A DNA stretch of 63,677 nt, counting the filler, from Kipferlia bialata (taxonomy: Eukaryota): assembly GCA_003568945.1 (NCBI GenBank). It is 6 parts of 6 records of this genome, joined end to end, with 100 filler letters (N's around TTAATTAATTAA, not from the genome) between each part and the next. Parts side by side here need not be neighbours in the genome. Positions count along the whole stretch, not along the records: positions 36,847 to 49,023 come from BDIP01001124.1; 5 more parts are not named here. The stretch is one strand, 5' to 3'. Made by a program: the position numbers and the translations under genes. This document shows positions 13,635-61,291 of the stretch, piece after piece. Position 1 is the stretch's first letter. Every line of letters begins with the position of its first letter. The notes under the pieces were generated by a model. It did no database searches. It was not told where the DNA came from and saw only the letters and a program-made list of their open reading frames with translations.

Positions 13635-13665
<31 letters not shown>

Positions 13666-13860
13666 CATATATATATAGAGAGAGATATATGTTACACTGA
13701 CTGCTTATGCTGAGAGACCGGCCCAGATGCAGGTGGGTATATAGGATATACATACATATATATATACATATACATATATATAGAGAGAGAGATAGATGTT
13801 ACACTGACTGCTTATGCAGAGAGACCGGCCCAGATGCAGGTGGGTATATAGGATATACAC

Positions 13861-13891
<31 letters not shown>

Positions 13892-24197: not shown

Positions 24198-24416
24198 GTA
24201 TAACATTCATATAGATATGTACTCTCCATCTCTCTCTCTATATATATGTGTGTGCGCGTGTGTATGTTCTTGAGGGAGCATACGATGCATGATTAGTGGT
24301 GTTCAGCAGTATAGTATTCTGTTCCATATACTACATGTTCTGATAAGGTGGAGGTCATTGGTGTGTATAGCAGGTATATTTCACTTCGGATTACTTTTAT
24401 TTATTCTCTGTTATTC

Positions 24417-24466
<50 letters not shown>

Positions 24467-35229: not shown

Positions 35230-36682
35230 CTACAGTGTAGTGAATGATGCACTCTTCCCCTTCTGTCTGGCAGCAGGCACCACCGCCACCCCCATGTCCC
35301 TGGAGGGGTGTCTGGGGTTGAACTCGGGGCAGTCTCTGCCGATGTGCCCCACCCTGTGGCAGTTGTGGCATATCCTATCCTCAGGTAACCCGTCCCCCCT
35401 CAGCTGCCTCTCCCTCCTAGGCTCAGGGCACCCCTTGGCAGTGTGACCGGGCATCCCACAGTTGTAGCAGGTCGGCTCCCCCTCGTAGCGAGGCTTCCTC
35501 TTCCTAACCCTCACCTCAGATGTGTCCCTGTTGGGGTGTACAGGGTTGTACTCGGGGCAGTCCCTCCCAATGTGGCCGGGCTCCCCACAGTTGTAGCACA
35601 CCCTAGACCCGGTGTTGGAGTGCTTGCCCACGTTGGGGAGGGGGCAGTCCCTACCAATGTGGCCAACCTCCTGGGGTCAGAGAGACAGAGAGAGAGGAGG
35701 AGAAAGATACTGATATCATGTGACACTAACTAAATAACATACCCCACAGTTGTAGCATATGCGGTCGTCAGTGTCAGAGCCACTGTCGGAGAGGGCCAGG
35801 CGCTCCTTCTTCTTAGCCTTACTCTTCCTGTCCTTTCTGGGCTCGGTGCACTCGCGGGCGTTGTGACCGGTCTTGCCACACCTGCACAGTGAGGGAGGGG
35901 GGGATATGGGGTAAACATAACATACACAGTAGGTGACAAGGGGCACAAGATATAGGACACAAACAAAAGAGAGTGTCAGTCACACCCACCTGAAACAGGC
36001 AGGCTCAGAGCTCACGCTCTGCTCTGCCCTCTGTACCTGGCCAATCACACGGTCTAGGGCAGAGAGGGAGGGGCCTGATCCCTGCACAGTGAGGCATAGA
36101 TGAGAGGCATAGATGAGACTGTGGTAGAGGGTGTGTGTCTCTAGGTCGTCGGTACCTTTCCCAAGGGGGTCCTGACCTCTGCACTATCGGTCTCGGTCTG
36201 CACCCTGTTCCTAGTAGAGGTGGGCCTGGGGTGGCTAGAGACAGCCTTGGCCTTGGTCTGTGTGCCAGGTCCATGGGACACAAGGACAGGGCTGAGGGAG
36301 GACCACTGGAGGTCAGAGAGGGACAGGGATGGAGACTATATGCACATCAGGGTATCTATAGTAGGGTCGAAATACCAAGAGAGAGACACACTAATATGTA
36401 TATACACTCACCTTGTCTACAACGGGTGGCTGGACACTCTTGGGCTTCTGCGCGGGCTGAACACTCTTAGGCTCAGCCTTCTTGGTAGGCTTCGGCCTAG
36501 GCTTGGCCTTAGTCGTGGGGGCCTCAGCTACCTTGGCTACCTTGGTAGGCACTGTCGGCACCACAGGCTGTGTCTGAACAGGGGTAGGGACATACTGGGT
36601 ATGTACTGCACCCTGGGGGCCATATGCATGATGACTCTGCACTGGTACAGGAACCATAGGGGGTGCAGCAGTGGCCACAAGC
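35230..36682 (-). CDS. CCHC zinc-knuckle nucleic-acid-binding protein (5 knuckles, CNBP/Gis2-like), 5' end missing
   Basis: CFR|CGKTGHNAREC, CYNCG|EVGHIGRDC, CYNCGEPGHIGRDC, CYNCGMPGHTAKGC, CHNCHRVGHIGRDC, after a Pro/Lys-rich region. Introns split two of the knuckles. Confidence 0.9.
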
Positions 36683-36746: not shown

Positions 36747-36846
36747 NNNNNNNNNNNNNNNNNNNNNNNNNNNNNNNNNNNNNNNNNNNNTTAATTAATT
36801 AANNNNNNNNNNNNNNNNNNNNNNNNNNNNNNNNNNNNNNNNNNNN
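36747..36846. other. Artificial contig linker
   Basis: N44-TTAATTAATTAA-N44. Confidence 0.99.
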
Positions 36847-36918
36847 TCCCTCTGCAACTATCGACTTTTTTTCACCCCCCCCCCCCCCCCCCCCCCCACC
36901 ACCACACTTACATATATT

Positions 36919-36959
<41 letters not shown>

Positions 36960-36981
36960 ATGTATATATGTGTGTACTCAC

Positions 36982-38487
36982 TCTGCAGCCAGGTCGTGCT
37001 GAATGCGCACCAGGAACTTGTTGTCAAGACCTGGGAATTAAGGGTGTAGAGATGAAAAACGCTATGTTACAGGGAATAGAGGTACTATTTAGTAAATAGT
37101 ATTTACAGGGTGAAGATACACAACTAAAGGGTGCAGAGATGAACACTAGGAGCTCTTCATATATACATATATATATATATACTTCTGCCTATATATGTAA
37201 TAGTGACTATATATGACAATACCTGGGTGCTCCACATCGTGACTGGCAGCTGCAAAGTATATATATATAAATATATACATCTTGATAGACTTATATATAT
37301 AACTACTAACTATATACATATATATATGTGTGTATATATACCTGGGTGCTCCACGTCGTGACTGGCAGCTGCCAGGATGAGGGCCAGGAGCTCAAGGTCA
37401 CCAAACACATGCCTATGGTTGGCAATATTATATACATGCATAGAGTATATATATACACTATGGATATATACTATGGATGAGGGCCAAGAGCTCAAGGTCG
37501 CCAAAGGCATGCCTATGGCTAAGTGATTGTATAAAGAGATAACAGTGTTGAAATAGAGGACATGCGTTTCGCTGGTAGACCCTAAAGTATACATACTTGT
37601 TGCTATATAATACATATACATCTCACTGATACCTGTTCTTGGCTAGCATTGTCCTGGCCATGCAGACACACCTGGAGAATAAGGGTGCAGAGGGGGAGAG
37701 AATGAGAATGAGATAGAGATAGAGAGAGAGAGAGAGAGCACTCACATGTGGCAGACGTCTGTGGCGTGGGTCGAGTTGTGGTATATACATATACGATATA
37801 TGCACCTGTAAGTATATGTATAAATATGTACATATACATCTTACTCACATGTGGCAGACGTCTGTGGCGTGGGTCGAGTTGTGGTATGTGTTGCAGCTGC
37901 TGTAGGCGGCCTGGGGTGAGAGATACATAGCATATATATANNNNNNNNNNNNNNNNNNNNNNNNNNNNNNNNNNNNNNNNNNNNNNNNNNNNNNNNNNNN
38001 NNNNNNNNNNNNNNNNNNNNNNNNNNNNNNNNNNNNNNNNNNNNNNNNNNNNNNNNNNNNNNNNNNNNNNNNNNNNNNNNNNNNNNNNNNNNNNNNNNNN
38101 NNNNNNNNNNNNNNNNNNNNNTATATATACAGTATCATGTGTTGCAGCTGCTGTAGGCGGCCTGGGGTGGGAAAGAATAGAATATAGTAATACACTATAA
38201 ATATCCATACAATACAATGATTGATATAGATAGACATACCAGCATAGCGGTACACTAGGAACCACATCTGGGACTATTATGAAACACACACCTACATATA
38301 TGGAGGATACATATATATATATAGATATACAGTACCCTACCTGCATTGTGGACACCACATAGATATATAGATATATATATATATATATATACTTTATTAT
38401 ACTATAATTAATACACACACTATATATATGGAGGATACATATACAAATATATATACAGTGCCCTACCTGCATTGTGGACATTTACAG

Positions 38488-38519
<32 letters not shown>

Positions 38520-41500
38520 TATACATACCTGCATTGTGGACACCAGGTACCACATCTGGGACCTGCTGATGTGGAGCCTGTGGATTAAGGGTGCAGATAC
38601 ATGTATATCTATATATATATGTATATATATAGAGAGAGAGAGAACGAAGAGACCTGCTGATGTGGAGCCTGGGGGGTAAGGATAGAGAGGGAGAGATATT
38701 ATTAGTCAGTAACATAGTTATAGCTTTAATACATCGGTGATAACACTTACCGCTCATACAGCTTCATCTCGTGCATGGCACTGTCCACCAGGGTGGGCAG
38801 GGCAAGGAAGGAGGCAGCTCTGATATAAGATGGTATATGCAGTATATATACATATATATATTTGAAGAGAGAGAGAGAGAGAGAGAGGTAGACACCAGGG
38901 TGGGCAGGGCAAGGAAGGAGGCAGCCCTGGGGTGAGGTACACATACTATTTACTACTCAGGGTGTGAGAGAGAGAAAGATATATATATGTATAACGGTCA
39001 AGACGAGGAGGTGTCTCTACACAGACTAGGAATACTAGTGATATACAATAGTTCATATACTAACCTAGGATACCCCGCTATCTCCCCCGTGTTCTCCTTG
39101 GCATCAGAGTCTCTCTCTCTCTCTGCCAGTACTATATAGTATATAACAATTTATATATATAGTTTATATATACAATCAAGTACCTAGGATACCCCGCTAT
39201 CTCCCCCGTGTTCTCCTTGGCATCTGGTGGGAAGGTCTTGAATACATCAAAGTCGGCATTCCATACAAGCTGATATTAAGGGTGTAGAGGGAGAGAGAGA
39301 GAGTAGTTCTTGAAGACAACAAGTCAGCATTCCACACAAGCTGGGTATTAGGGGTGTAGAGGGAGAGAGAGCGAGAGAGAGAGAGTGAGAGAGAATAGTT
39401 CTTGAAGACATCAAACTCAGCATTCCAGACAAGGTGGTATTATGGTACTATAATATCGTACTATAACACTATAAGAATAAATATACAATGTATAGAGTAC
39501 ATATCCGTCGCTCAAAGGGTCTTTTTGGCATTCGGTACACAGTGACATATACTACATATATCCATACGTAGTATACACTATGACACTACATGCTATATAA
39601 TGATAACAATATATACAACATATACATCCATACCTCTACCCCTATGGGTCTCTTTGGCATTGGGTACACAGTGGTATATATATTATACATTGTATAGTAT
39701 GTTTGTATATATATTTACTATACACAAAATAGATAATGTGTACTATACCTCGATGGGTCTCTTTGGCATTGGGTACACAGTAGTATATAATGTATCTTCT
39801 TCTCATATATATATACATACATCAATAGAGGTATACATATATATATATATATATACCCATACCTCAATAGGTCTCTTTGGCATTTGGTACACAGTGACGG
39901 TGACATGTACTATATACATGTACAATATATATTGTACGGTATACATATAAACCTATTTATATATTGAATAGTCTCCATACCTCAATAGGTCTCTTTGGCA
40001 TTGGGTACACAGTGATGGGAGGGGAAGGGGGGAACACCTCATTGCTAGGGGTCAGAGAACATCTACTATCTACAAACTGACACTGCGGTATAATAGACTG
40101 TCATCTCTCACTCACTCACCCTATTGCCGCCGCCCTCTCCCTGGCCTCATCCTCTGTCTCCACGCATAACACATAACTCATACTAAATACTGCATATAAT
40201 ATAAGTATATATACTATTGATTAAGACTAATGCTACATACCCAATGGCAGCCGCCCTCTCTCTAGCCTCGTCCTCTGTCTCCACTCATAACACAAACCAC
40301 ATACTAAATACTGCATATAATATATGTATATATACTATTGATTAAGACTAATACTCCATACCCTATTGCAGCTGCTCTCTCCCGTGCCTCGTCTTCTGTC
40401 TCCACTCGGCTCAGGGTGCAGTGGGCCTCCTTACGGGGGCCCTAATAGTAAGTAATTGTCGTTATTACACTACCCTATGTATATAGATATACTGTGTGTG
40501 CTACTAGATTGAGGGTGCAGTGGGCCTCCTTGCGGGGGCCCTAAGAGTCAACTATAGGTGTTGTGCTTATACAATCAATTATATAATAGAATTATAATAT
40601 GTATGATATTATAGAATTACAATATGTATATTATTGAGCTCAGGGTGCAGTGGGCATCCTTACGGGGTCCCTAACGGTCAAACAGAGTAAGAAGATCCCA
40701 AAATGTAGGGTTATAGTGTAGCACAACTATATATATATGTACCTGCCATCCGGATAATGGGTTAGCATATTCACATACATGTACATATAATTCAAATGTA
40801 TGATATAATTAATGTCTAATGAATATTTATATATATGAATATATATATATAATAAATATATATGTATATGTGTACCTGTCATCCCGAGAATATGTCGTAC
40901 TAAGTATAGTTGTGGTTATCATATATATATATATGTACAAAAATGTAATTAGTATAATAATTAATATAATAGTAAATTCATATTTACATATATATACATA
41001 TAATTACCTGCCATCCCGAGAATATGTCGAGCATCAGGTCCTTGTCAATGCCTGAAATAAGGTCCAGCAGTCAACTAAAGGGTCTAGTGAATATAGTATG
41101 GTAGCCTGAAATAAGGGTGTAGTCGCCAACAAAAGGGTCTAGTAAATGCAAGAAGAGTGAAGAGTGAAGAGTGAAAGCATATACCTGAGCGTGCTATGGC
41201 CTTGTCTCTCTCCCTCTGCCTCTCTCTCTCCCTCTCGTGGCTGGGGGTAAGCAAACACCAATTTATCCATTTCATGGCATGTATACTAGGTCACTTATGA
41301 GGAATAGATATGCCAATCATATATAGATACCCCAATCAAGGCATATAGAGGTGTATACTCACCGCATTCTGGGCACGATGTCAGGTGCTGTGTTTGTGTC
41401 ATTGGCATCTCTCGAGTCACGCACACCCAGGAGAAGGTCACGGCCTGATGTAAGAACTATATGTATATATAGAATACAACATAAACCATAGTATAGGGGT

Positions 41501-42741
41501 GTGAATTGGCATCCCAGCAGGAGGGCACTGCCTGATGTGAATATATAATCAATGTATTTACCATAGTGATACAAGGTCTATACAAATATTGAAGTGGTTG
41601 GATACCCAGTTGTGCATACGAGTTGACCATGAAGTGCGCCACCTCATATATAATACATACACATATGTATAACATATACATACTTATATATACTTATATT
41701 TATTAGACACAGTACCTGTTGGCTCTATACTGACTACTGGTTGGATATCCAGCTGTGCATATGAGTTGACCATGAAGTGTGCCACCTCAAGTGCCTCTCG
41801 GTCAGGCTTAGAGAGACCAATGATCCTGCTTATTAGAGAATAGAGTTGGTACGTCATCATCATCATTCATAGTGGAGTATATAAGTAGAGCCTCTCGGTC
41901 AGGCTTAGAGAGGCAAATGATCCTGATAGTAACATACTATTAGTAAGGGTGTAGCAGAGATGAATAAAGGGTGTAGCAGGTATGTGTCATGGCTTGGAGA
42001 GGCCAATGTTCCTGAGGGTATAGCGTGGGTATATATATCAAAGGTTTGGACATGGTGGTAAATATACATGTACAATATGGAGTACCTGTATCTCTCACTG
42101 TTGACCATGTTATCCAGGGTATCCATCTATACGTATACTATATACTATAGCATATATATATATATATATTACATACCATGTATATATATAGTACCTGTAT
42201 CTCTCACTGTTGACCATGTTGTCTAGGGTGTCCATATACACATACTATATACTATAGCATATATATATAAATGTATACCATGTATATATACTATATATGT
42301 ACCTGTATCTCTCACTGTTGACCATGTTGTCCAGGGTATCTAGGATAGATACAACGGGGAGGCCAGTCTTCCTACGCAGAACCTGGGGTTAGAGATATAG
42401 TTAGGAATATATGAACATATATACTCGGTATCTAGGATGGACACAACGGGGAGGCCAGTCTTGCGACGGAGTACCTTAGTATAAGAGGACTTATATATAT
42501 ATACACACACACACATATATATATACACACAGAGAGAGAGAGGGAGATGCGCCAACGGGCAGACCGGTCTAGGTCTTGCGACGCAGGACCTGGAGTAAGG
42601 TATATATACAGGTATATATAAATCCATATATGCTAGTAACATGTTCATCTTCATATAAAATTCACTCACTCACCTGATTCACCCCGTCCATGACCACATC
42701 CTGCAGGGGGGTATATATATATACATACATACACTATACTG

Positions 42742-42772
<31 letters not shown>

Positions 42773-44240
42773 CTATACCTGATTCACCCCGTCCATGACC
42801 ACATCCTGCAGGGGGTTATATACAGTAAATACATATACTAATATATATATATATATATTATGCATATTATGTATATAATACATGAGTATACCTGGTTCAC
42901 CCCGTCCATCACTACATCCTGCAGGGGGTGGACAAACCTCCTCATCTGGGAACCCCTGGTATAAGGGCAATACTCAGAATGAATGGGGGTACATCGATAC
43001 AAGTGTAGTATTAAACTGTATAGAATATCATAGTTCTTTTCAAATAATTATGGGATTAGACTCATGCAAAGAGTGACGACAGCAAAAATGAGAGTCAGGG
43101 TTGTACCTCCAGTGCCACAGCTTGCTGAACATGTCAAAGGACCTGGACATGCATAAATATATTATATAACTATATACAATAATAATGTATATATATATGT
43201 ATGATGTAGTCTAATAGTTAAGGGTATAGACTCCTACCTCCAGTGCCACAGTTTGCTGAACATGTCAAAGGACCTGGACATGTGGTCTATGCCATACAGG
43301 AGGTCAACGATGACATAGAACCTGAGGGATAAGAGGGTGTAGAGAGAGAGAGCATGTGGTCAATGCCATAGAGGAGGTCGACGATGACATAGAACCTGAG
43401 AGATAAAAGGGTGTAGAGAGAGAGAGAGAGAGATGTGGTCTATGTCATACAGGAGGTCAACGATGACATAGAACCTAGAGATTAGCATACAAGAACATTC
43501 ATATTATTATATATTATTAGAGAGAGAGAGAGAGAGAGAGAGAAACCTGCTCTATACCTGCTTGAGTAGAACTGCCTCAGGGTATGCTTCTCGAGCTGGG
43601 CAAGGACCTCCTATAGATAAGAGACACAATACAATTATGCTTGCACAGTGTTAACTATCTGACAACATTACTAAACATGTACTTATGACTATATACGTAA
43701 GATGCAATTATTGTAGGTATCATACATAAATATGCATGTTGTGGAAGTGTACACACCTCTTCGACTGCCTCAAACACAGCCATACTATCTCTAACACTAG
43801 TGTAAAAGAACAAACATACAGCCACCCACACATATACTAGTTTGTATACACTGATATACACATATCCTACCTCCTCGACTGCCTCAAACACAGTCACGGC
43901 CTCAGAGGTCATCCTGGCCTGGTATGAGATAGTGTATAGAGTGATACATATCTAATACACTATACTATCCAAATACATCTACACAACAGCCTCAATAATT
44001 ATTATGTAAATATATATATATACTATATAGTCACGGCCTCAGAGGTCATCCTGACCTGGGGGTTAGATTAAAGAGTATAATTGAATAGATGTATATGCTA
44101 CATTTACATACTACAGACATATACACCCACCTTTAAGTCGGGTATCATCCTAGGCACCTTGGTCACACAATCATATCCAAGTCTATCTATACTATATGGA
44201 TACATACATATTTACTATGCTAGTATTCTTCTTTATCAAT

Positions 44241-44278
<38 letters not shown>

Positions 44279-45340
44279 GTCATAATACCTTCAAGTCCGG
44301 TATCATCCTGGGCACTTTGGCCACACAATCATATCCAAGTATATCTATCTACAACTATATATATATATAGATATATACATATTTTATATGGATACATACA
44401 CATACTGTGCAAAAATACCTTCAGGTCTGGTATCATCCTGGGCACCTTGGTCACACCCCCAATGTGGATACGGTTCTGGAGTGTTAGCTAGAAGAACACG
44501 AGGTCATGGATCCACTTGTATACTCTCAACCATGTACACATAACAATGTGTTTGGAAAGACAGAAGTAGCTCTATATGTATGTACGTCAAACGTGTATAC
44601 CTTCAACCCCGCATTACAGTATGCTACCCCAGATATATACATACACAGATTCTTGATGCATACAATTATCAAGATTCAATACTACATACTTAATACATAC
44701 TATATTATAACTAAATACCTTCAACCCTGCATTTTACACATATATATATATATATATATATACATATATATACATATATACCTTCAACCCCGCATTGCAG
44801 TATGCTGCCCCCAGGTAGGTGAGACCACACCGGCACTTGGCAAGGGCAGCCTGAATATAAGGGTGTAGAGGGAGAGAGAGACAGGGAGAGAGAGAGAATC
44901 ACTAGACACCTGGCAAGGGCAGCCTGGCAATAAGGGTGTAGAGGGAGAGAGAGAGAATTACTAGACACTTGGCAAGGGCAGCCTGGGATAAAGGGTGTAG
45001 AGGGAGAGAGAGAGAGAGATGACTCTCACCTTTGGGAAATACAACTGCCCCAAAGACATGTAATAGAGAGATAGTATACTATAGTATACACACCCTCGAG
45101 ACCTCTATGACTGGGGCATCATCGTGGGAGTGTAGGTACCTGGAATAAGGGTGTAGTATCTATTAAGGGTGTAGGTACCTGGAATGAGGGTGTGGACGAA
45201 GGGAACAAGGATGTAGTCTGTGTACAAGTACAATAATACGTGCAAATACAATATGAATATGTGAGGGTACTCTCTATGCAATACAACACGTACTGTGCAA
45301 ATATGGTGCATGCCAGTCAGTCTCTCTCTATATATATGAC

Positions 45341-45380
<40 letters not shown>

Positions 45381-48300
45381 AATATATAGGAATACGTACT
45401 GTGCAAATATGGTGCATGCCAGTCTGTTGGGGTCCACCTCAGTGTCCTTGGTGTCCACTTGCTGGGATGAGGAATAAAGGCACAATGGGTAGCACCTATA
45501 TATGTATTGGTACATTGTACAATTCTAGTATAACTTATGCATAACAACCTCAGTATCCTTGGTGTCCACTTGCTGGGATAAGGCTATATTAGGCAGGGAA
45601 CTACTCCAATGTCATTACAAGTGACTATTATAGTATGACTTATGTACTACTTACATATATACATAGTCGTACCCGTCTGTACTCCAGTGTTGCATTCAGG
45701 AACTCCATGCTCAGCCTGGCCTTGGGGTTGCCCTACAGTCAATGAAGTAAGCAGTGATACTAGACCTAGTATTGTAATAATGGACATATTCAAGAGAATT
45801 TTTACTACATAACATTGTCGTGATTGTTCACAGGCCCTTTTACCTGTCTTCTGACGACTAGATTGACTGTTAAACTACATGTCTTCTGACGAACAGAGCA
45901 AAGAGGTCATAATGAATACTATACAAGGATATATACCTATTATAGACGCATATATATATAAATATATATCCAATATACCTGTCTTCTGACGAACAAAGCA
46001 AAGAGGTCATAATGAATAGTACATAACGATTCTACATATATACATATATTTAGTATAATTATATATAATACACTATTGTATATATATAAATATTTTGTAA
46101 AATTATATATAATACACTAATGTAGTACCTGTCTTCTGACGAACAGGGCAAAGAGGTCGTAATGAATTTCTACATTACGATTCTACATAATACACTCGTA
46201 TATATATATTTAGTAAAAATATATATAATACACTAATGTATATATATATATATTTAGTAAAATTATATATAATACACTAATGGGTTACCTGTCTTCTGAC
46301 AAACAGGGCAAAGAGGTCGTGTCCATGGACAATCTCAAAGAGACCATTGAGGGTGCCTGTGGGAAAACAACAGTAAACAAATGAAATACATATGAATATA
46401 TGAATGTCTATCAGTGTACTACGCAATGAAAGATATCTCAAACAGGCCATTGAGGGTGCCTAGTGATTAAGGGTGTAGAGTGTGTGAGAGAGAGAACAAT
46501 ACAACCTCAAACAGACCATTGAGGGTGCCTGTGAGATAAGGGTGTAGAGGGAGAGAGAGAGGGGGACAGAAACTACACCACCATATAGATGAAAGTGAAT
46601 ATATCGAATATATAATGCTAACCAATACACCACGCAACAAAAGAGTACCTGGCACATTGGTTGTCAGTACCAGCGGGTGCACAAACGCGAGTACAATGAT
46701 GATGCCACTGTTGCCAAGTACAGCAGACCAGATGACACCGCAATATGCCTTAGAGTCAGTATGTATAGAAACACACATATGTATATACATATATATACAT
46801 ATGTTAATGAGTGTATATATATGTACAAGTGATTATGCCACTGTTGCCAAGTACAGCAGACCATATCACTCCACAATAGGCCTAGACGTAAGTAGATATC
46901 TTATATATAAACTAGATATATATCCAAATAGAGTATTCTAATCCAACACTCACCTGAGGCGTGACATGCATTGACACATGTAATTATATGGATACTAATA
47001 TATACATATACTTACATATGTATATATGTACTGACCTTACATGAATACTTATATACACATATACTTATATATGTATATATATACTGACCTGGGGTGTGAC
47101 ATGCTGCAGAAAGGCGTGGTACACATAGTACACAATGGCAGTGCGGGCAAGGGCAACAAGGGCAAAGACAAGCCAGTATAGGCTGAACCTGGAATAAGGG
47201 TGTAGAAGGAGAGAGAGAGAGAGAGAGTAAGGGCAACAAGGGCAAAGACAAGCCAATACAGACTGAACCTGGAATGAGGGTGTAGAAGGAGAGAGAGAGA
47301 GAGAGAGAGCAGGGGCAACAAGGGCAAAGACAAGCCAGTAAAGGCTGAACCTGGAATAAGGGGGTAGAAAGAGGAAGAGAGAGACTGTCTCACGCACTGG
47401 AGAGTTAGGGGTGTAGGGGAGGAGAAAAGGGTGTAGGGAGGGAGAGAAATGGGGGTCAATGTATATATATACCTGCTTCGAGAGACTCCTCATCATCACA
47501 GTCTCTCTCTCTCCCTCTCATCTATCTCCTCTGTGTATAGATATGTGTAAACATACACACACATATATATATACCTTCTTCTAAAGACTCCTCCTCCTCT
47601 GTGTCACTGGAGAACTCCATATCACCATAGCAGTGCTTAGTATAAGGGGTCTCCTGAGGTTAAGCATATGTGTGACAGTGTATAGAGAGAGAGAGAGAGA
47701 AGGATGGGAACTCCATGCCTGCATAGCAGTGCTTAGTATAGGGGATCTCCTGAGGTTGGATTGTACACTATACTCCCTAGTATACGTCTATCTAATTAAT
47801 AAATACTAGTAATACAATCATTAATACTATTTACTCCATACCTGTATAGTGATGGGGTCGTTGATGATACTATATATGTGTGGGAATCTATATACATGTA
47901 TGATATACATGCTATTATGCTCCTTACCTGAATAGTGATGGGGTCGTTGATGGCTGTGTTGGTCATAGAGCCATACTGGGATGAGTTAGGGATAAGAACA
48001 CTAATCTTTGTAATAATAGTACTCTAATTTCTATACAATGAGAAAGAGACACATATCATTGTATAAACATAGGAACACCAATCATAGTATGAACGTATAC
48101 AGAGAGAGAGAGACATAAAGAGAAGATGATACTACTTCCAGATGTCCTTCACTCACCTCATCCTCCTGAGTATATGTTGTTTGCATATAGGTATATATAT
48201 ACACATATGCACATATACCTCATCCTCCGAGTATATGTTGTCACAATATATGTAAATACATATATATACACATATATATATATACCTCATCCTCCGAGTA

Positions 48301-48989
48301 TATGTTGTCACTCCATGGCTCAGAGGTGTCTGTGCCCTCAAACCCATGGATACCAGACTGGACCTGGAATAAGGGTGTAGAAGGGGAATATAAGGGTGTA
48401 GAAAGGGAGGTACGGGTGAAGGTGGGGAACATGAAGCAAGAAGAAACTCACAATTTGTGTGAGTACTTAGTATACATATGATGTATTCACATTAAGTACA
48501 TACCAGAAGTCCACAGAGGTATGCATTACACTACATTGTATTCATATACATTACATAATAAATTAACTATAGAGAGGTATACCTCTGCCCCCCTTGCGAA
48601 GCAGAGGAAAAAGGGTGTAGATAGATGTATATATATATATATACTAATATATATATACATAAACATGGGTATACATACTCATATATATACACTCATATAT
48701 ACATATTCATGTATACATACCTCTGCCCCCCTTGCGAAGACATCGATATACTCCACAAGTAGTCAATATGTATACATATATAGATATATACACCTATATG
48801 TATATATACTCATATATATATACCTCTGCCCCCCTTGCGAAGTACATTTATACATATAAATGCAATAGAGAGTAAAGCAACTACGTATGACACTATTGAT
48901 ATACTCCAGTGGCGCATAAAAGTATATAGTATTACCTCTGCCCCCCTTGCGAAGCGTCCTGTCAACAGGAAGTCAGGGGAGTACACGAC
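36982..48989 (-). CDS. Class I cyclic-nucleotide phosphodiesterase with upstream transmembrane segments and an RGS-like domain; about 30 exons, both ends missing
   Basis: PDE motifs WNADFDVF, YHNSTHATDVCH and LELLALILAAASHDVEHPG|LDNKFLV. RGS-like exons at ~46356-43557. Hydrophobic exons FSLYWLVFALVALARTAIVYYVY and AYCGVIWSAVLGNSGIIIVLAFVHP. Phases fit across the RGS exons and the intervening exons read open; one phase conflict near 47400. Confidence 0.85.
40120..40405 (-). repeat. 121-bp-period exon-end echo array (VETEDEARERAAAIG|GT x3)
   Basis: Copies at 40362-40405 (true exon end), 40241-40284 and 40120-40163. Confidence 0.95.
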
Positions 48990-49023
48990 CTGGGGTGAAT
49001 ATAAATATATATATATGTAAATT

Positions 49024-49123
49024 NNNNNNNNNNNNNNNNNNNNNNNNNNNNNNNNNNNNNNNNNNNNTTAATTAATTAANNNNNNNNNNNNNNNNNNNNN
49101 NNNNNNNNNNNNNNNNNNNNNNN
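49024..49123. other. Artificial contig linker
   Basis: N44-TTAATTAATTAA-N44. Confidence 0.99.
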
Positions 49124-49175
<52 letters not shown>

Positions 49176-49725
49176 GTAGATATAGTAGATATATACTACA
49201 CCGCGGTATATCTGGCCATGAATGGTGTGTATATAGAGATGGTATGTATATAGAGATGGTATGTATATTGAGATGGTATGTATATAGGGTTGGTATGTAC
49301 ATATTGTGACAGATACATATGTATTCTACGGAGTCTGCCCAGCTACTGCTGTGTCAAATTCGTATATATATTGGAATTACATATATAGCCTAGAGGGGAC
49401 TATTTTCACATAACTATGGTTAGCAAGTATTTCTCGTATAGACACGACATCCCCCGAACTCCACTCTGCCCAGCTAATATATATTAGGAATAATTATGTA
49501 TAAGTGTTTATATATTCTATGTATTACTATATATAGCATATATATGTATATATGTATATATGTATTCACTTTCTCACTACAGACACCACAGCCCCAGGGT
49601 TCCACTCTGCCCAGCTAATAAGTATTATTATATATATTAATACATTAATAGTGTTTAAAAAAAATACACTATCTATATATATATATGGAATAATTATGTA
49701 TCAATATACTCTATTCTCACTATAG

Positions 49726-51527
49726 ACACCACAGCCCCAGGGTTCCACTCTGCACAGATGCACAGCGTCCTCTACAGAGCTCTGAGTCGGAAGGACCCCA
49801 ACCCTGTTACCATAGAGGTATTATACATTATTAGTGCTTATTCATTGTATATATGTATTATATTTCTTATAGTATATAGTATATAGTATATATAGTATAT
49901 ATATATATATAACCCTGTTACCATAGAGGTATTATACAATATAGTGTGATATACACTATACATGTATATGTACACACCATCGTGTACAGTGGTCTAAGTC
50001 GGAGTGACACCGAGTCAGATATATATATCCCTTTCTTCTTATTTGTAATTATGTAATATGTAATAGATTTCTTTCTTCTTATTTGTAATTATTCTATCCA
50101 TTTTCTAATTGTTTCATTTTTAATAAGAGTCCAATGTATATGATACCCATTGATGTCTGAGTTTACTCTCACTACCCCTTTTCATGCGGGGTGACACCTA
50201 GATGACCTTAGTCTACTGCTGTTCTCTTCATGAATACCTCGGAGTAGAATTACTTACTTACCATAAGTTACAGTTTACATTACATTCAATTACCCAAAGT
50301 TATCGGGATTTTTACCGTTTTTACCATAATTTACCTCAGTCTGTAGCCGTTCTCTTCGTCATTGCAGAGAACGACATAGAGGGAGGTACGGTGTACTACT
50401 ATTACTATTATATAGTACATGTATATAGTATTATACCTCACCCCCAGATCTCTCTAATCGACTTGCCATGTTGCCTCTCTTTGTGACTGCCCTACAGACA
50501 AAGCTGAGGGAGGAGGACCCAATCAGAAAGTGTGGGATGACATATTCCATATATATATATATATATATAGTTATTGGTACAAAGTATATATGTGTTCTAC
50601 AGACAAAGCTGAGGGAGGAGGACCCAATCAGAATATATATATATATATATATATATACATAAGCATTATTGTTCATGGATAGTGTTTTCAAACTCAACGT
50701 ACTTGGATACATCACATACATCACCTATCGTTTGACTATCTAAGTATGTATATATATGTATATTTATAGATATACAATTTCATATATAGTGCATATATCT
50801 AAGTGCATATATAAATACTCACCCCCAGACTCATCCATCTCATTCTGTTGGCACTGGTCAACGCCATTTGTGGAGGTATGAATTTCTCTATCTCTCTCTC
50901 TCTCGTTATCCAATATTATCCTCATACTCTATCATGTTTAGCCCAATGCAAAACAGAATTATTAATTAATATCAATCTGTAAGTTAAGAATACTTTAAGC
51001 TAAGAAGTCTTGCCCGTCCACCAGTTGTATGGTTATATGCATGCAAGTATTGAACGGCTTCTGTGGAACGCTACAGTACTAAGAGACGTACAGTATGAAT
51101 CTATATATCATATCCACACTCTGATTCCAGCACACGCAGCTACATATATATATATAAATGTATACTAATTTACCTGAGAAATATACATACATGCACGTAT
51201 ATACCTGATATATATATAATAAATATATGTGAATATACTGACATACATATACACCTGTTCTTATACCAGCACATGCAGCGACTGCCCTTAGGCTTGGTGC
51301 TCACACACTAGGTATGTGTACTTGGTATATATATATATATAGATAGATAGATAGATATATGTGTCAATAAATAAGGATATATATATTTATATATCAACAA
51401 TCATGTGTACTATATCGGCCCTCACCTCCTCGTTTGACATATACATATGTATTACTCTATACATATATAGCATGAGTGGTAGTCTGTTCTCATACCCTAG
51501 CGATGGACGCCGTGGCCAGGTTCTCCT

Positions 51528-51561
<34 letters not shown>

Positions 51562-52283
51562 TATATATATTGATATATATATATCACCCCCAAGCCATGG
51601 ACGCCTTGGCCAGGTTCTCCTTTCTCTCTCTCTCTCTCTCACACATATATATATACATATACATATATCAATTGGTATATACTACTAATTCACCCCCAAG
51701 CCATGGACGCCGTGGCCAGGTTCTCCTCTACTATATATACAGTATATTCTTATATGTATATATTCCTCTTTAAGTGACATTACCGGTTCTCATATATTCA
51801 TATATGTTCATTCACATTGACACCAGCCATGGACGCCGTGGCCAGGTTCTCCTCTTCCTATGACATATGCAACGAGGCAGTAGCGGTGCTGTCGTCTATG
51901 GCCAACGGTACGGGTCTATTATAATCTCTATATCTACACTCGGAGTGTAAATCTCTACAGTTATACGGGTATGAAGAAATAGAGGTCCTATCCTCTATGG
52001 CAAACGGTACGTATTGGGAATATCATATCAATATATATACCACCTGCAGAGGTACATGTTCTGCATACATATAACTACCCATATATATATGTGTGTGTGT
52101 ATGTGTGTGTATACATTCATGGCATTAACTTACTAGTCATGATACACCCAGACCATGGTGCATCATCTATATATATATATATGTATATGTATATTATACA
52201 TGGTATTAACTTACTAGTCATGATACACCCAGACCTGCAGAGGGCCATGATACCGTATATATTTTTTCATGTACTATATATCA

Positions 52284-52315
<32 letters not shown>

Positions 52316-52946
52316 CATAGTACTAACTGTCTAGACATGGAGCCCGACCACCTGCAGAGGGCCATTATAATAGTAGTATATACACATATATATACAATAT
52401 ACATAAGACTAAGACATAAGACTAAGACATAAGACTAATGCACAGACATGGAGCCCGACCACCTCCAAAGAGCCATGGTGCAGGCTGGTGTTGTACAGAC
52501 ATGCCGCACAGCCATGCTGGCACACCCAACGTCAGCGGTGAGTGATACTCATATATATGTATGTGTATATATATATATCCCTCTATCTATATACGCTGAG
52601 TACTGAGTGCCGCAACGCAATGCTGGCACACCCAACGTCAGCGGTGAGAAGCACATTATCCTATTCACTCTGTATGACGTGTACTATTTATGACTATTAA
52701 CATGCATGTATTTGTATGTTTCTAATGTACGTCAGCGGTGAGAGGTTCTCGTGTCTAATATATACTATATGATATTCTGTATTTATACTCCATTTGTAAT
52801 TCTCTGACTCTCGCTCTCTCTCTCCATTCTTATCTATGAATACAGACTGACTTCAGGCCTAGTTGGGTAGTTTTTATATCATCCCTCTCTCTCTCTCCCC
52901 TTTCTTATCTCTCTAGGGTATATCTGGGCAGTCCCTTGACGTCATT

Positions 52947-52979
<33 letters not shown>

Positions 52980-53938
52980 TCAATCCCACTCTCTCCATTC
53001 TTACCTATCTATCCGTACCAGTAGATACTAACTTCAGGGGATAGCTGGGCAGTCCCTTGACGTCATCTCGCTGATGTGTCTGCACAAGGACAGAGACGGT
53101 ACGGAGTAAATCAATATATATGTATATATGTATTACTATATGGTATGATATACATATATACTGATGTGTCTGCACAAGGACAGAGACGGTACGGTATATA
53201 TCTATATAGTAACATAAATATACACATAAATATGTATACATATATACTAATGTGTCTACACAAGGACAGAGACGGTACGGTTTTTATGTGGTAGTGTATA
53301 TACACATATATTGCTATATGGTACAAGGACAGAGATGGTACGGAGCAGCATAAACTAATAATAGTATCTATTCATCCATACATTATATACCAGCTTATAT
53401 ATTAGTATATTAGTATAGATACGCTTGTTTTGCATGTTCTTACCACAAGAGCAGACCCTCGGCCCACTAATGTCCCAGCGTGTGTATGAGTGGGCCCTGG
53501 AGGCATTGTCAGCATTCTTACAGGTGCATAAGCTTACATATACATATATTACTACAATGCAATACTTATGTTACTAAATATATGTATATACATTGCAATG
53601 CGTATGTTTTGCATACTGTACGAGTGGGCCCTGGAGGCAATGTCAGCATTCTTGCAGGTGTGTTGTAGTGTATATATACATTAGCATATATACAAAAATA
53701 CATTCACTGTGTTACTATATAATATATATATGTGTGTGTGATATACATATATATGTGTGTATATGTTTGGGCACTGAACTCTACGATATCATAGATATAT
53801 GTGTATGTGTTGCTGTGTATATATATGTGTATATATATGCGTATCTGCCCACAATCAGGACCCCTTTGTTGTCGACAGAGCCATCAAGGTGCTGCAAGTA
53901 TGCATCAATGGTATGTGCAGTATGAATATCACATGGTC

Positions 53939-54012
<74 letters not shown>

Positions 54013-54697
54013 TATACATATCTCACCCCATACCCCCCCGGCATGTCCTATGCCACTAGGCCCCAGTCCCTGCAGACACTCTTTGCATCACTGCACATGC
54101 ACATAGACGATGAGGTATAGTATTATAATATCATTATTATCATACTTTTGTATGTCATATGGTATACATCACTCCACATGCACATAGACGATGAGGTGGG
54201 TGTATGTATAATTATAGTATCAATATTTATATATGTATTTCATATGAATTGCATCACTGCACATGCACATCGATGAGGTTGGTATAGTAATATAGTAAGT
54301 ACATGAGAAGTATATCAATATATATATTATATTTAGTGTATACATTTGCATCGCTGCACATAGATGATGAGGTGGGTGGGTGCGGATGATTACTCTGACA
54401 GTACTCATATCATGAACTGACCGAGTGTCACCTGATGCTGCTGATCATTCATATATACATTATATATACTGGTATATACTTATATACTTATGTATGTATA
54501 TACTTATGTGTTATATACTTATATACCAGGAACTGACCGAGTACCTCCTGATGCTGCTGATCAGTCTCTTTTATTCATGTTATAAATATATACATTGTAT
54601 ATGGTGTTATATATATATGTATATACACCAGTCATTAATACCAGGAACTGACCGAGTGCCACCTCATGCTGCTGAACACCATGTACCACTATGCAGG

Positions 54698-54730
<33 letters not shown>

Positions 54731-55298
54731 GTATATATATATTTGGTATCATGCATATATACTATGTATATGTAATAGGGTGAGATGTATACATTTATAA
54801 CATGTACAGCTATGCAGGTATCCATGCATATATATGTATTTGGTGTCTCTGAAGTCAATTGTTTGGCTATAAGACAACTTCTCGGTTTTCACTACACTCT
54901 CATATAGTTCTCGCCAACCCCCTTCATATGATATATATTGTAGTGTATAAATATATATATGTCTTACGCTCAGATGATTAGTAATTATGTATCTTACTCT
55001 AAGTATATATGTGTATATATATGGTTATATATATACATATATATATCTGTATATAAGCTAAGTCTAACCCCCAGATGATGACCAGTACATTGCGCTTATG
55101 GACATGGACCTGGTGGGCTGTATGGCTAGGGCTAGGTATATTACAGTATATGCTTATGTATGTTAATACACATATATATTTAATATATTATAGTGTATTT
55201 ATTATACATATATACATGTAGTGTTAAGTATATGGACCTTGTGGGCTGTATGGCTAGGGCTATGTGTCTATGAGTGAAATATTCATTATGTTTGTATA

Positions 55299-55335
<37 letters not shown>

Positions 55336-55757
55336 TTGATATAGCATACGCAGTATACAGTGTATACAGTGCGTAACTCATTCCCAGGGATAGACACCCA
55401 ACCAATGTCGAGATCATCAGACATTATTTTGATCTCAAGGTACGTTTGTATTCACTATACCTTCATTTACATTTAGAAGATGTATAATTCATTCATATAT
55501 ATATACATCTAACACCCAGAGGATGGAGGCCCAACCCGTGTCCATCAGGTGCCAGATAGCCAGGTATACCATGTAATAGTATACTATATTGCTATGTANN
55601 NNNNNNNNNNNNNNNNNNNNNNNNNNNNNNNNNNNNNNNNNNNNNNNNNNNNNNNNNNNNNNNNNNNNNNNNNNNNNNNNNNNNNTACAATATATCAGGT
55701 GCCAGATAGCCAGGTATACCATGTAATAGTATACTATATTAGATCATAGATCTATAG

Positions 55758-55795
<38 letters not shown>

Positions 55796-57376
55796 GTCTC
55801 CATCAGGTGCCGGATAGCCAGGTATACTATGTAATACTATAATATATACCATATATATATATATAATATGTATATATATAATATGTATAGTATGTCCATC
55901 AGGTGCCAGATAGCCAGGTATACCATAATGCGTATATATTATATACTATATATACTATTATGTATTATATATAGGTAGATATAGATACAGGTGCCAGATA
56001 GCCAGGTATACCATAATGCCAGTGCAGGATATATATATATATATATATGAATATCTAATGTATTTGTATAGGTATACCATAATGCGTATATATATTGCTA
56101 TGTAATAGTATACTCTGACACCAGGGACAAGAAGAAGAGAGAACAGGAGGGACACAACTGTGAGTACCCGGAGGGAAGACAGGTACAATATATATATATA
56201 TGTGTGTGTATGTATATACTAATACATGTATACGGACATTATTACATTAGCTGCTGAGTAAATTCATATCGTGAAGGGGAGACAGGTATTATTATTATAG
56301 TACTATATACATACCTGTATATATATAGGTATGTATATAATATAATAATACAATATATATACTTACACCCAGGACCCTGACTGGGAGAAGCAGACCACGT
56401 ACGGGGAGTCTAAGTTCGACGAAGAGACAGGTAGAGGACCCATATATATATACACTCATTAATGTATGGTAAGTGTATGCATATATATATATATATAACA
56501 CTAGGAATGCTTCTCATGAATAGACACCCCTTAGATGATATGGTAAAGAGACAGTATAAATAATAGATTTACAATGTTATAGGCAGATGGTACTCAGATT
56601 CAAATGTATCTTCAGTAACATAGTACAGTTGAATGATTCTAGGCATCCTTGTCCTCAATGATGAGACCCTCTCAGACATTGTCAAGAGACAGTAGTATAT
56701 ATCATACATGTATTGGATATTCTACAATTACTATATTTATCGCAGGCATGCTTCTCCTTAATGATGAGACCCTTGATGACATTGTCAAGAGACAGTTGTA
56801 TATATCATACATGTATTGGATATTCTACAATTACTATATTTATCACAGGAATGCTTCTCCTTAATGATGAGACCCTTGATGACATTGTCAAGAGACAGAT
56901 GGCACTCAAGTTCAACCAGGACTTGGGTTGTGCCATGATACACTACGGGAAGGTACGTATTGTATGTATATATATAGTGTTTATAATATATAGTATTATA
57001 CACTCAAGTTCAACCAAAGTCTGGGGTGTGCTATGATACAGTGCGGGAAAGTGTACGTTTTTGTATATGTATATTTAGAATATGATATGATAAGTATTGA
57101 TATGTGCAGTATAATATGCAGAATGATATGCAGCATGGAGCATTAATCCTGTTAGTGAGTGCGAACAAAGAGAAGCACTTGCATTTACATCATATTACCC
57201 CTTCCCAACCTCTCTGCTTGGGTACATACCTATATACAAATATACGTATATACCTATATTATTACTATGATACCTCTTTAAGAAGCATTATACTATAATT
57301 CACTTCAGATTACTATTCCCGAGCTCTCTGCCAGGGTTGTCTACTTTCCAGACTCAGTCGGCCAGAAGGTATACTT

Positions 57377-57425
<49 letters not shown>

Positions 57426-58494
57426 GTCTGTATATCTCTCCCTCTGTCTATTTGCCATTATTCTAACAATGAGGGCCTAGATGACTTCTGTGCCTCTCTG
57501 TGCTGTGGCTTACTCTCTCCCTCTCTCTGTCTGTATGTCTTGCTATACATATACTAACCACTAGGGTCTAGACGACTTCTGTGCCTCTCTGTGCTGTGTC
57601 TTACTCTCTCTCTCTCTATGTATGTTTTGCCATTGCACTTACCACTAGGGTCTAGATGACTTTTGTGCCTCTCTGTGCTGTTTCTACCTCACTGCCACTC
57701 CCTTATGCACTGTAAAGAACCCAAGTGCCCTGAAGCGTCTTCTTGCGGCATCTGATAGGCACGTAGTTGTGTGCACACACGATGTTGTGGGTGCTAGCCC
57801 TACTACCAAGACCCACAAGCTCCACATGTGTATGTGGAGAGAGTTTGCCAAGAGAGGGGTCAATGCTAGAGCTTACATGGCTTTGGATGAGGTGAGGATG
57901 GGTATATGCATATTTTCATGCAACTCTGTGTGTGGAGGATTTGAGCAAGATGTGGAAAGCCCTGTATTTACATATTCTTTCTTTTCTGGTCCAGGTTTGA
58001 TGTACAATGTGAATCAGGCAATGCTGTATCAGTTCAGATATTGTATGTGTACATGTATATATTCTTATCGTCTCACTCCTCAGGCCAGGACTTATACATG
58101 CGTGTGTATCTGTGTGATATATATGTGGATCTCCTCTCACTCCCCAGGCCCAGGTCTGTGAAGATGAGGGTCCCTCCCGTGGTGTATACACCCACCTATC
58201 CTCAGTGGTCAGGACCCACTACTTGGACAAGATGCCACAAGAGATGCGGGACGACAGGGAGAGAGAGGGAGGTACGTACCTTCATACACTCACTGTCACC
58301 CATATACTTCTGTACCTTACCCCAGACCCTCCCGTGAGATGTCAGCTCCAACATACATACACACCTACATATAAATATACCTGTATATCTTATCCCACAC
58401 ATGTGTATACATCTAACTCTCAGACAATCCCGTGACCTGTCTGCCCCTGGGTCAGTACTACCAGGAGTCATGGGGAGACTACGCCCACTGTTAG
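49726..58494 (+). CDS. Armadillo-repeat-like protein with unrecognised C-terminal domain, multi-exon, 5' end missing
   Basis: Exons such as AMDAVARFSSSYDICNEAVAVLSSMAN, LQRAMVQAGVVQTCRTAMLAHP, DPFVVDRAIKVL and MDLVGCMARARDRHPTNVEII have the ARM-type pattern. The last exon NPVTCLPLGQYYQESWGDYAHC ends at TAG 58492-58494. Confidence 0.65.
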
Positions 58495-60123
58495 TCGTTC
58501 TCCATTGTAGGCTACACTACCCTGGATATACTTGAATCACATATCGGCTTTCTACGCACAATAGAATTGTTTTCTTGCGAAGTCAATCTATGATACCACA
58601 GCACAGAGTAATCACTATTGGCTGCCTTGGGGACGTATAATCAGAAACGCAACACTTTCCACACTCAAAACAGAGCCTAATAGAAGAAATTACGAGTTGG
58701 ATGCTGAATATATGACGTACTAGCAGCCAGTGGTCACAGGTCAGAATCAATGGGGGATTGGCACACACTGCTTTGTCCTTGTCACATGGAGCCTGCTTGA
58801 GTAACACCCAGTGGGTGAGTATATATGGTAAAGGTGCACTTCAAAGAGAGGTATTGCTTGTGGAAATTTGCGGCCAACAACCTTCTTACAGGAGACGTGA
58901 TTGAAACCTTCAATTTGAAGACATGAATATACAGTACATTGGTATCCTACTGTAGTATATATCCAGAGACATAACTGTACTTCTTACCCAACCATCCCAG
59001 AAATCACACAGGTTAGTTACACACAGTTACACCGCTTCAGAGAGTCTGAGACTTAGACTCCAAGTGACTCAGATTTGGAGAGAATACCATTACCATCTTG
59101 TGAATACAGTCAAGTGATATTGTAATTAACATTACAATAATAACATTATGTTATTATACAGTCATATGTCTCTTTCACACAGTATACTCTGAAGCATTCC
59201 TCTAAAAATGGCATTACCCTGGTACAGCAGCTGTCGGGTACTCGAGATTCCTCCTGAGTGGGCAAGATATGGCATGAACAATTGCCAGACGGTGCTAGGC
59301 ATTGGAGACAACACATTTCTGGCTGGTACACGCAGTGGTGGAGTGGACAGGTGTGCTACATACACACTATATGGACCCTATATGTTCTCTACGTGGCCGT
59401 GTAGGTTTCAATACGGCATAATGAGCACGCCATGGTGGAGTAGACAGGTGGACCATCTATTGAATAGAGTCCATACTACAGTATAGAAGATGATCTATAG
59501 TACAGATTCTATACAAAATACCCTATATATTATTCGTGGCAGTGAGGCCCACACTGTTTTTTTCTGTCTTTTTATCAATACAATGATATTTGCACTGGCA
59601 CGAGTTTCTCATATTATTCTGCAGTGTGTATGTATATAATACATACACACTATACATTGTATAAGACCATTTGCGCATTCTGTTAGTATCAAGTGTCCTG
59701 ATAATCCAACATAATGACTCCAGGTAACATACATAGATTGAAGTTATAGATTATCCCCCCTCTCTCTCTATTAGGGACAGTTCAGAGGCTGTGAGTAGTA
59801 GAATACAGCATCAGTACTCTCCCACTTACCCAGATACACAATGGATCCTGACTCCCTCAAAGTGGCATCCAAGGAAGAGGCAATAAAGAGAAAGAGGAAA
59901 GGTATTAATGCAACTGCTAGTAAAGACTCAAACAGTATTTGAGTACCACCGGATCAGATTCTGATTCAGAATACAGTCTTTAGTAAAGACTCTTTACCAT
60001 AAACACTCAAAACTTTTGATGACTCAAAAGAGAATTCTCATACCCCCAGATTGTTGGATGTCGACTAATGAGATGGAGTGAGATGACTGTATTTACACGT
60101 GTATGCATGACAACGGGACCCGT

Positions 60124-61282: not shown

Positions 61283-61291
61283 CTGGGGTAG

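Follow-up and report, generated by a model that had tools for sequence, protein, structure and literature searches.

RGS domains (regulators of G protein signaling) turn G proteins off and phosphodiesterases (PDEs) turn cyclic AMP (cAMP) off. Kipferlia bialata is a free-living fornicate and a relative of Giardia, and the 63,677-base window of its draft genome analyzed here (the whole stretch of DNA, at its full length) contains a minus-strand gene, KIPB_004993, that very probably encodes, in one reading frame, a membrane-helix pair followed by an RGS-like domain, a linker and a class I PDE domain. The combination is new in joining two known kinds of protein, membrane-anchored PDEs and membrane RGS proteins; the gene has so far been seen in one species only, its GenBank entry being that of an unannotated hypothetical protein, and no RGS-PDE fusion was found in literature searches covering sources other than subscription journals and domain-architecture databases.

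Among the described systems, Giardia lamblia has a single class I PDE, GlPDE (GL50803_14058), which comes from the same fornicate lineage and has a counterpart in Spironucleus. As presented in the sections of PMC5617230 that deal with its layout, GlPDE has 8–9 predicted helices extending up to residue 573, a catalytic domain from residue 997, and between them a middle region (~420 residues) in which there are 'no discernible domains'; the catalytic domain alone does not complement in yeast, a construct with the middle region does, and the enzyme is a proposed drug target. The Kipferlia protein has the same succession of membrane helices, spacer and C-terminal class I PDE, and its spacer, some 400 residues long (in the GenBank protein, P0001, from the helix end at about 147–151 to the PDE region at 552), is like that of GlPDE. 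It differs in having two visible helices rather than 8–9, and in its RGS-like domain, none being reported for GlPDE in those sections. Searches with the Kipferlia N-terminal and middle parts returned no diplomonad protein, GlPDE itself not being directly compared.

Seven-transmembrane (7TM) RGS proteins, with Arabidopsis AtRGS1 and examples from Naegleria and Trichomonas (PMC3971589; see also PMC9283941), resemble the Kipferlia protein in that the RGS domain directly follows the membrane helices, on what in Kipferlia would also be the cytosolic side; they differ in that the complete Kipferlia paralogue has two helices and not seven, that a PDE follows, and that the G-alpha contacts are not evidently kept in Kipferlia. 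The oomycete GPCR-PDE 'bigrams' (G-protein-coupled receptor fused to PDE) likewise have a membrane-helix N-terminus and a C-terminal cyclic-nucleotide PDE, so that the membrane is linked directly to cAMP, but their membrane part is a 7TM receptor, no RGS domain is described in the relevant part of PMC5784254, and they belong to an unrelated lineage, the stramenopiles. In the effector and scaffold proteins GRK2, p115RhoGEF, PDZ-RhoGEF, axin, SNX13 and SNX25, which provide our best structural matches, level with RGS4 (Z 10.3–7.0), an RGS-homology (RH) domain shares its polypeptide with a catalytic or targeting domain; none carries a PDE, whereas the Kipferlia protein does. Finally, the RGS9–PDE6 gamma–transducin complex (PDB 1fqj, which is among the rows of the Foldseek search below and of VIA-align over the Foldseek list) has an RGS domain acting together with a cyclic-nucleotide PDE system on one G-alpha, although there the proteins are separate and the PDE subunit is inhibitory, whereas in Kipferlia the domains are covalently joined.

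The exon model was assembled by hand from the minus strand and then verified by script. It contains 30 exons, all of them flanked by AG and GT (30/30), with exon sizes of 39–110 nt and introns of 122–711 nt (median 294), and it is organized as follows:

47575..48989, minus strand: exons A–D, acidic N-terminal stretch (A 48989-48936, B 48363-48286, C 47975-47928, D 47653-47575)
46649..47188, minus strand: two helix exons of 100 nt each (47188-47089 and 46748-46649), P0001 residues 85–107 and 118–151
43238..46356, minus strand: nine exons, R1–R9, RGS-homology domain, P0001 residues ~151–345
39981..42955, minus strand: eight exons, L1–L8, linker of ~200 residues, collinear with paralogues
36982..39269, minus strand: seven exons, P1–P7, N-terminal part of the class I PDE domain, from the Pfam match and the PDE4B alignment

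The encoded parts run from an acidic stretch through the membrane-helix pair and the RGS-like domain to the linker and the first quarter of the PDE domain. The 26 exons from the first helix exon (TM1) to P7 specify 587 residues with no stop, the frame being maintained across 25 consecutive GT-AG introns from the helices into the PDE domain. The model includes the peptides TLNGLFEIVHGHDLFALFVRRQ|GNPKARLSMEFLNATLEYRR, RLACTIFAQYLHSHDDAPVIEVSR|AALAKC, VFEAVEE|EVLAQLEKHTLRQFYSSRFY, YHNSTHATDV and SHDVEHPG (exon junctions marked by a bar); the peptides quoted in the initial annotation of this locus were all located on the minus strand within it, and the limits given there, 36982..48989, coincide with the last base of exon P7 and the first base of exon A. 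An acceptor precedes exon A (48989), which is therefore not the first exon, the gene running upstream past the scaffold end; a donor closes exon P7 (36982).

The GenBank counterpart, KIPB_004993 (P0001), is an independently derived partial model of 693 residues described as 'hypothetical protein', and it falls on the same exons with three differences: it has an additional in-frame 75-nt exon at 44982-44908, it places the acceptor of exon R6 12 nt further into the exon, and it inserts an exon, 47397-47314, to link exon D with TM1, the first of the helix exons. In the hand model the junction between exon D and TM1 is out of phase. The proposal that the RGS and PDE parts belong to one gene is borne out, as far as can be judged from gene models, by the continuous frame, the agreement of the GenBank model and the same layout in a complete paralogue, P0005.

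The class I PDE assignment made earlier is supported. PF00233 (PDEase_I; gathering cut-off 24.8 bits) matches P0001 residues 628–692 with 63.3 bits (E 3.7e-17) over profile positions 1–63 of 238, and the best solved relative is PDE4B (E 1.9e-12), in whose alignment YHNSTHATDV and SHDVEHPG fall on both metal-binding motifs; the two metal-binding His motifs, H-N-x-x-H and H-D-x-x-H, are both present. Only this first portion of the profile is represented because the scaffold ends truncate the gene on both sides, and the remainder of the PDE domain was not found in the other scaffolds of the window.

A hydropathy scan shows two hydrophobic helices immediately before the RGS-like region (P0001 residues 85–107 and 118–151), the third hydrophobic stretch of the GenBank model being the doubtful 75-nt exon. 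The helix pair also directly adjoins the RGS-like part in the paralogues P0005 and P0006; the complete P0005 has two hydrophobic helices and the partial P0006 at least one further hydrophobic segment upstream of the pair. These counts come from a simple hydropathy scan rather than a topology predictor, and KIPB_004993 is cut at its 5' end. The initial annotation had pointed to TM-RGS proteins of the AtRGS1 type and had raised the possibility of a membrane sensor. The hydrophobic helices are there, two of them visible, but the protein is probably not an AtRGS1-type seven-helix receptor, since the complete paralogue has two, and no sensor domain is evident.

The RGS-like domain has no RGS annotation in the GenBank records, and its assignment relies on profile, feature and structure searches that point the same way. 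When the 207-residue RGS part is scanned by itself, PF00615 (RGS; gathering cut-off 23.9 bits) scores 25.8 bits (E 1.5e-5), above the cut-off, and the paralogue P0007, scanned whole, scores 32.5 bits (E 1.2e-7); P0005 scanned whole gives an RGS match at E 0.015 over profile positions 9–83. Among the nine aligned RGS parts of the family, six match PF00615 at E<=1 (best 4.8e-8), and every other family matches at most one of the nine. A profile of the family searched against 177,635 PDB sequences gave five matches at E<=10. Four are of RGS type, two to the axin RGS domain (0.015, 0.023; both align in two collinear stretches) and two to RGS4 (0.62, 0.92), and the fifth is PsbX (1.9). With phmmer, the single RGS part finds RGS4 among PDB sequences at E ~1, the non-RGS protein AvrM-A being on top (0.77), and an NCBIfam scan gave no match. 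The ESM Atlas feature neighbors are three RGS clusters (0.78–0.79, below the trust bar of the tool), and its top structural neighbor is RGS11 at a template modeling (TM) score of 0.52; we take both as leads only.

Structure prediction adds to this picture. AlphaFold with the single sequence gave an unusable model (pLDDT 38.4), and with a nine-row family alignment it gave pLDDT 65.1 and pTM 0.59, with a core (model residues 1–66 and 150–200) at pLDDT 73–85 and a disordered variable loop that sits between the sixth and seventh helices of the domain. The predicted model is an all-helical bundle of about nine helices of the RGS type. In Foldseek the 12 rows of probability >=0.63 are all RGS/RH domains, with TM scores by target of 0.59–0.67 for stand-alone RGS/RH domains, and the remaining rows have probabilities <=0.21; with VIA-align over the Foldseek list, named RGS/RH proteins fill 39 of the top 40 rows (Z 10.3–6.9). 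An unbiased VIA-align search covering 48,161 representative chains placed 14 named RGS/RH domains and one unnamed axoneme chain in ranks 1–15 (Z 10.3–7.0): SNX13, SNX25, RGS4, RGS3, the axoneme chain, GRK2 and axin in ranks 1–7; p115RhoGEF, RGS4 (nuclear magnetic resonance structure), RGS7, Entamoeba RGS-RhoGEF and RGS9 in ranks 8–12; and GRK1, PDZ-RhoGEF and p115RhoGEF in ranks 13–15. These alignments span 114–140 residues, with RGS4 covered over 114 of 116, and the first non-RGS fold appears at Z 6.9. Helical bundles readily attain Z values of this size, and the weight lies in the fact that a single family occupies the top ranks and whole target domains are covered. The initial annotation had named the lack of any RGS profile or structure match as the outcome that would speak against its RGS reading; both kinds of match were obtained, with PF00615 above threshold on the domain and structure searches dominated by RGS/RH domains, and with all the evidence combined we are highly confident of an RGS-homology fold.

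An exhaustive HMMER search with P0001 residues 85–551 against 1.84 billion representatives recovered eight relatives, all Kipferlia records, and no non-Kipferlia protein at E<=0.001; word-based searches also gave no relative outside Kipferlia, which is weak evidence of absence. Six different sequences span the last RGS helices, and the family therefore occupies at least six loci in Kipferlia. The more informative members are:

P0005 (GIQ82461.1): 1076 residues, starts with Met, complete; two helices, RGS-like part, linker and full PDE
P0008: last RGS helices, linker and PDE (1.9e-27), collinear with KIPB_004993
P0003: last RGS helices through to the YHN motif, collinear with KIPB_004993
P0006 (GIQ83381.1): upstream hydrophobic segments, acidic loop, helix pair and half of the RGS-like domain, then leucine-rich repeats (LRR) and a helicase

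The PDE domain of P0005 matches at E 9.1e-48 over profile positions 1–228 of 238. The ~200-residue linker is conserved across the paralogues, collinear in four records on different contigs (P0005, P0003, P0002 and P0008), and has no match to any known family. P0006 appears to be a chimera of gene prediction, or else represents a different fusion; its helicase is of the Upf1/MOV10 type (AAA_11 E 2.4e-26, AAA_12 E 3.2e-39).

It is against these records that an artefactual fusion is best considered, in which an adjacent membrane RGS gene and PDE gene have been misjoined, or in which the RGS-like stretch is a generic helical bundle. Gene prediction is evidently fallible here, with at least one doubtful exon in the GenBank model of KIPB_004993 and an apparently chimeric P0006, and middling Z scores come easily to helical bundles. 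A misjoin would nevertheless have to reproduce one stop-free frame through 25 consecutive introns, a linker that is conserved and collinear in four further records on different contigs, and the same order of parts in P0005 from its Met start, and a generic bundle would not be expected to draw profile, feature and structure searches to the same family. We regard an artefact as very improbable.

With the fused architecture as the starting point, a mechanism can be proposed. The two-helix hairpin would hold the RGS-like domain, linker and PDE at the membrane, all on the cytosolic side, and the RGS-like domain may bind a partner through the face by which RGS4 contacts G-alpha. The domain would then serve in docking or regulation, its probable partner being an activated protein of G-alpha type, and docking of the partner would set where or when the PDE hydrolyses cAMP at the membrane. 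An RH domain of the effector or scaffold type (as in GRK2, the RhoGEFs, SNX13 and axin) is preferred over a fast GTPase activator because the RGS4 contacts seem replaced. Taken as a whole, the fused architecture together with this G-protein-linked mechanism is a tentative reading that we place just short of an even call.

Several results weigh against it. On the scaffold the catalytic domain is incomplete, which is a limit of the assembly and not a defect of the gene, and the 5' end of KIPB_004993 is missing. When the whole protein is scanned, PF00615 reaches 21.2 bits (E 4e-4), under its cut-off, and just two of the eight paralogue records scanned whole match it at E<=1, the other six giving none; the family profile has no PDB match at E 0.001 among the sequences searched, and Foldseek no row at E 0.001 or better. 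The AlphaFold model is of middling confidence and built on nine sequences from one species, and for helical bundles Z scores below about 13 may mirror a common arrangement only. Aligned to RGS4, the family has 'k-l-a-l-e-F-l' opposite 'EENIDFW', with no acidic/Asn pair; the position of Asn128 is presumably Ser, if 'APVIEVS' is aligned to 'APKEVN', and that of Asp163 is apparently His, Gln or Met. A literature search found no publication on G-alpha or G proteins in Kipferlia, and Giardia is described as being without the whole G-protein system in the passages of PMC3971589 concerned with it.

The contact residues bear most directly on a second reading, that of a fully active GTPase-activating protein (GAP), in which G-alpha would be switched off and cAMP destroyed together as a double terminator of one pathway. 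The contacts of RGS4 are Glu87, Asn88, Asn128, Asp163 and Arg167. The RGS fold and the Pfam match are what such an activator should have, and the Ser aligned to Asn128 is invariant in the six of six family members that cover the position; Ser stands there in active RGS proteins of the RZ subfamily. The Glu-Asn pair in the turn between helices 3 and 4, and Asp163 and Arg167, are by alignment apparently not kept, however, 'LErhTlaeF' lies opposite RGS4 'MEKDSYRRF', and the N-terminal stretch of the family aligns weakly with RGS4, its score being negative (-1.4 bits). Since the RGS4 contact residues seem replaced and look poorly conserved, GAP activity of the RGS-like domain is doubtful, and we consider the double terminator improbable.

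The same replacements would suit a different explanation, that the RGS-homology domain acts without G proteins as a structural, dimerizing or autoregulatory module of the PDE (cf. axin, SNX25 and D-AKAP2), possibly as a relic retained after G-protein signaling shrank in fornicates. The family profile finds its best sequence match in axin, whose RGS-homology domain is not a GAP; SNX13, SNX25, GRK2 and axin are among the top structural rows, level with RGS4; and, in the sources cited above, Giardia has lost its entire G-protein system (PMC3971589) and its PDE requires an unannotated pre-catalytic region for yeast complementation (PMC5617230). In the other direction, Trichomonas, also a metamonad, retains G-alpha and 7TM-RGS proteins according to the corresponding passages of PMC3971589, and a free-living fornicate with 17,389 genes (PMC5874029, from its genome statistics) may retain them too. 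The conserved positions of the family also argue for a binding surface: its strongest conservation is in RG after helix 3, YLHS..PV..S and LE.xT..F..SRY, and these motifs fall in the loops after helices 3, 5 and 7, which form the G-alpha face of RGS4. We judge a G-protein-independent module to be less likely than not, but nearly as likely as the G-protein-linked reading.

If the G-protein-linked mechanism holds, the fusion would give G-protein-type signals direct control over cAMP breakdown in a eukaryote lineage that branched early. The presence of RGS and PDE on one protein is a 'Rosetta stone' fusion, from which one would expect the two off-switches to be directly linked in function. It would also reveal signaling parts of the free-living ancestor of diplomonad parasites before their reduction, and suggests an idea, open to testing, about the Giardia PDE, whose middle region is so far without explanation. 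We think it unlikely, although worth stating, that the RGS-homology module is an ancestral regulatory domain of fornicate membrane PDEs and that the ~420-residue region of the Giardia enzyme is its degenerate descendant; if so, that region would be a relic of G-protein signaling, retained and repurposed after the loss of G-alpha.

The additional exon of the GenBank model probably stems from the unusual introns of this gene:

44908..44982, minus strand: GenBank-only 75-nt 'exon', 25 residues (LVILSL...PLPG), made of duplicated acceptor copies

No counterpart of the 25-residue insert is present in any paralogue, and the hand model, which lacks it, aligns better than the GenBank model both with P0005 (298.3 vs 281.0 bits) and with P0002 (190.2 bits in one stretch vs 169.3 bits in two); by these comparisons the 'exon' is probably non-coding. 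A U12-type AT-AC intron within exon L3 (GG|ATATCC at 41748) was considered and rejected, the paralogues P0002 and P0003 staying coding there (SYAQLDLEPV...).

The introns of KIPB_004993 (36847-49023, minus strand) contain many degenerate tandem copies of the adjoining exon edge together with its splice site. Such copies are present in the intron directly downstream of 19 of the 29 donor ends (one to four each, 30 in total) and in the intron directly upstream of 14 of the 29 acceptor ends (20 in total); these exon-edge probes gave no matches in non-adjacent introns. Tandem Repeats Finder (TRF) reports 11 arrays on the gene scaffold, with periods of 53–160, 1.9–3 copies and 80–93% match. These repeats mislead gene models, the extra GenBank exon at 44908-44982 being one example: it and that at 47314-47397 (minus strand) are in-frame pieces of duplicated acceptor copies taken as coding. 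We know of no description of repeats of this kind at such density. They are of the 'mirage' type named in amphioxus (PMC3087553, in its description of the repeats). Arrays with periods of 81–115 are found on the other AT-rich, intron-dense scaffolds (six at 49124-61291 and two at 12286-24466), while TRF finds no tandem arrays on the three GC-rich scaffolds of the window, and exon-edge repeats may be typical of Kipferlia genes that are dense in introns.

A second peculiarity is a common intron 3' end, (CT)n-CCTCTACACCCTTAT..CAG, seen on the minus strand over 37039-48621. The 12-mer TCTACACCCTTA (<=1 mismatch) occurs 22 times, against 0.57 expected by chance, all on the gene strand of the scaffold and not at all in the other 51 kb of the window. 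It immediately precedes nine of the 29 true acceptors (those of exons B, TM1, R4, R5, R9, P1, P3, P5 and P7), and six of these nine exons begin with GT. From its distribution, TCTACACCCTTA seems to mark a family of related intron ends peculiar to this gene, which could have arisen by introner-like spread or by homogenization.

The window is not one locus: it consists of six scaffolds joined by five N44-TTAATTAATTAA-N44 linkers, the first five scaffolds being of about 12.2 kb each in order of falling length. As the window is a chain of scaffolds, apparent linker-spanning features are not real. The relevant landmarks are:

36847-49023: scaffold carrying the gene, 12,177 bp, to which the whole finding is confined
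36747..36846: artificial linker N44-TTAATTAATTAA-N44 between scaffolds, with a second copy at 49024-49123
37941..38121: assembly gap of 181 N, within the P3–P4 intron

Further coding exons inside the gap at 37941-38121 are ruled out, P3 and P4 joining without a gap in the PDE4B alignment. The draft genome of K. bialata has 124,912 GU-AG introns, and the terms 'RGS', 'G protein' and 'cyclic' are absent from the main text of the genome paper, as searched by term (PMC5874029). Several scaffold ends carry long G or C homopolymers, which are probably sequencing artefacts, and on a neighboring scaffold there is a long open reading frame with repeated CCHC zinc knuckles (CYNCG..GH..RDCP) at 35230-35676, minus strand.

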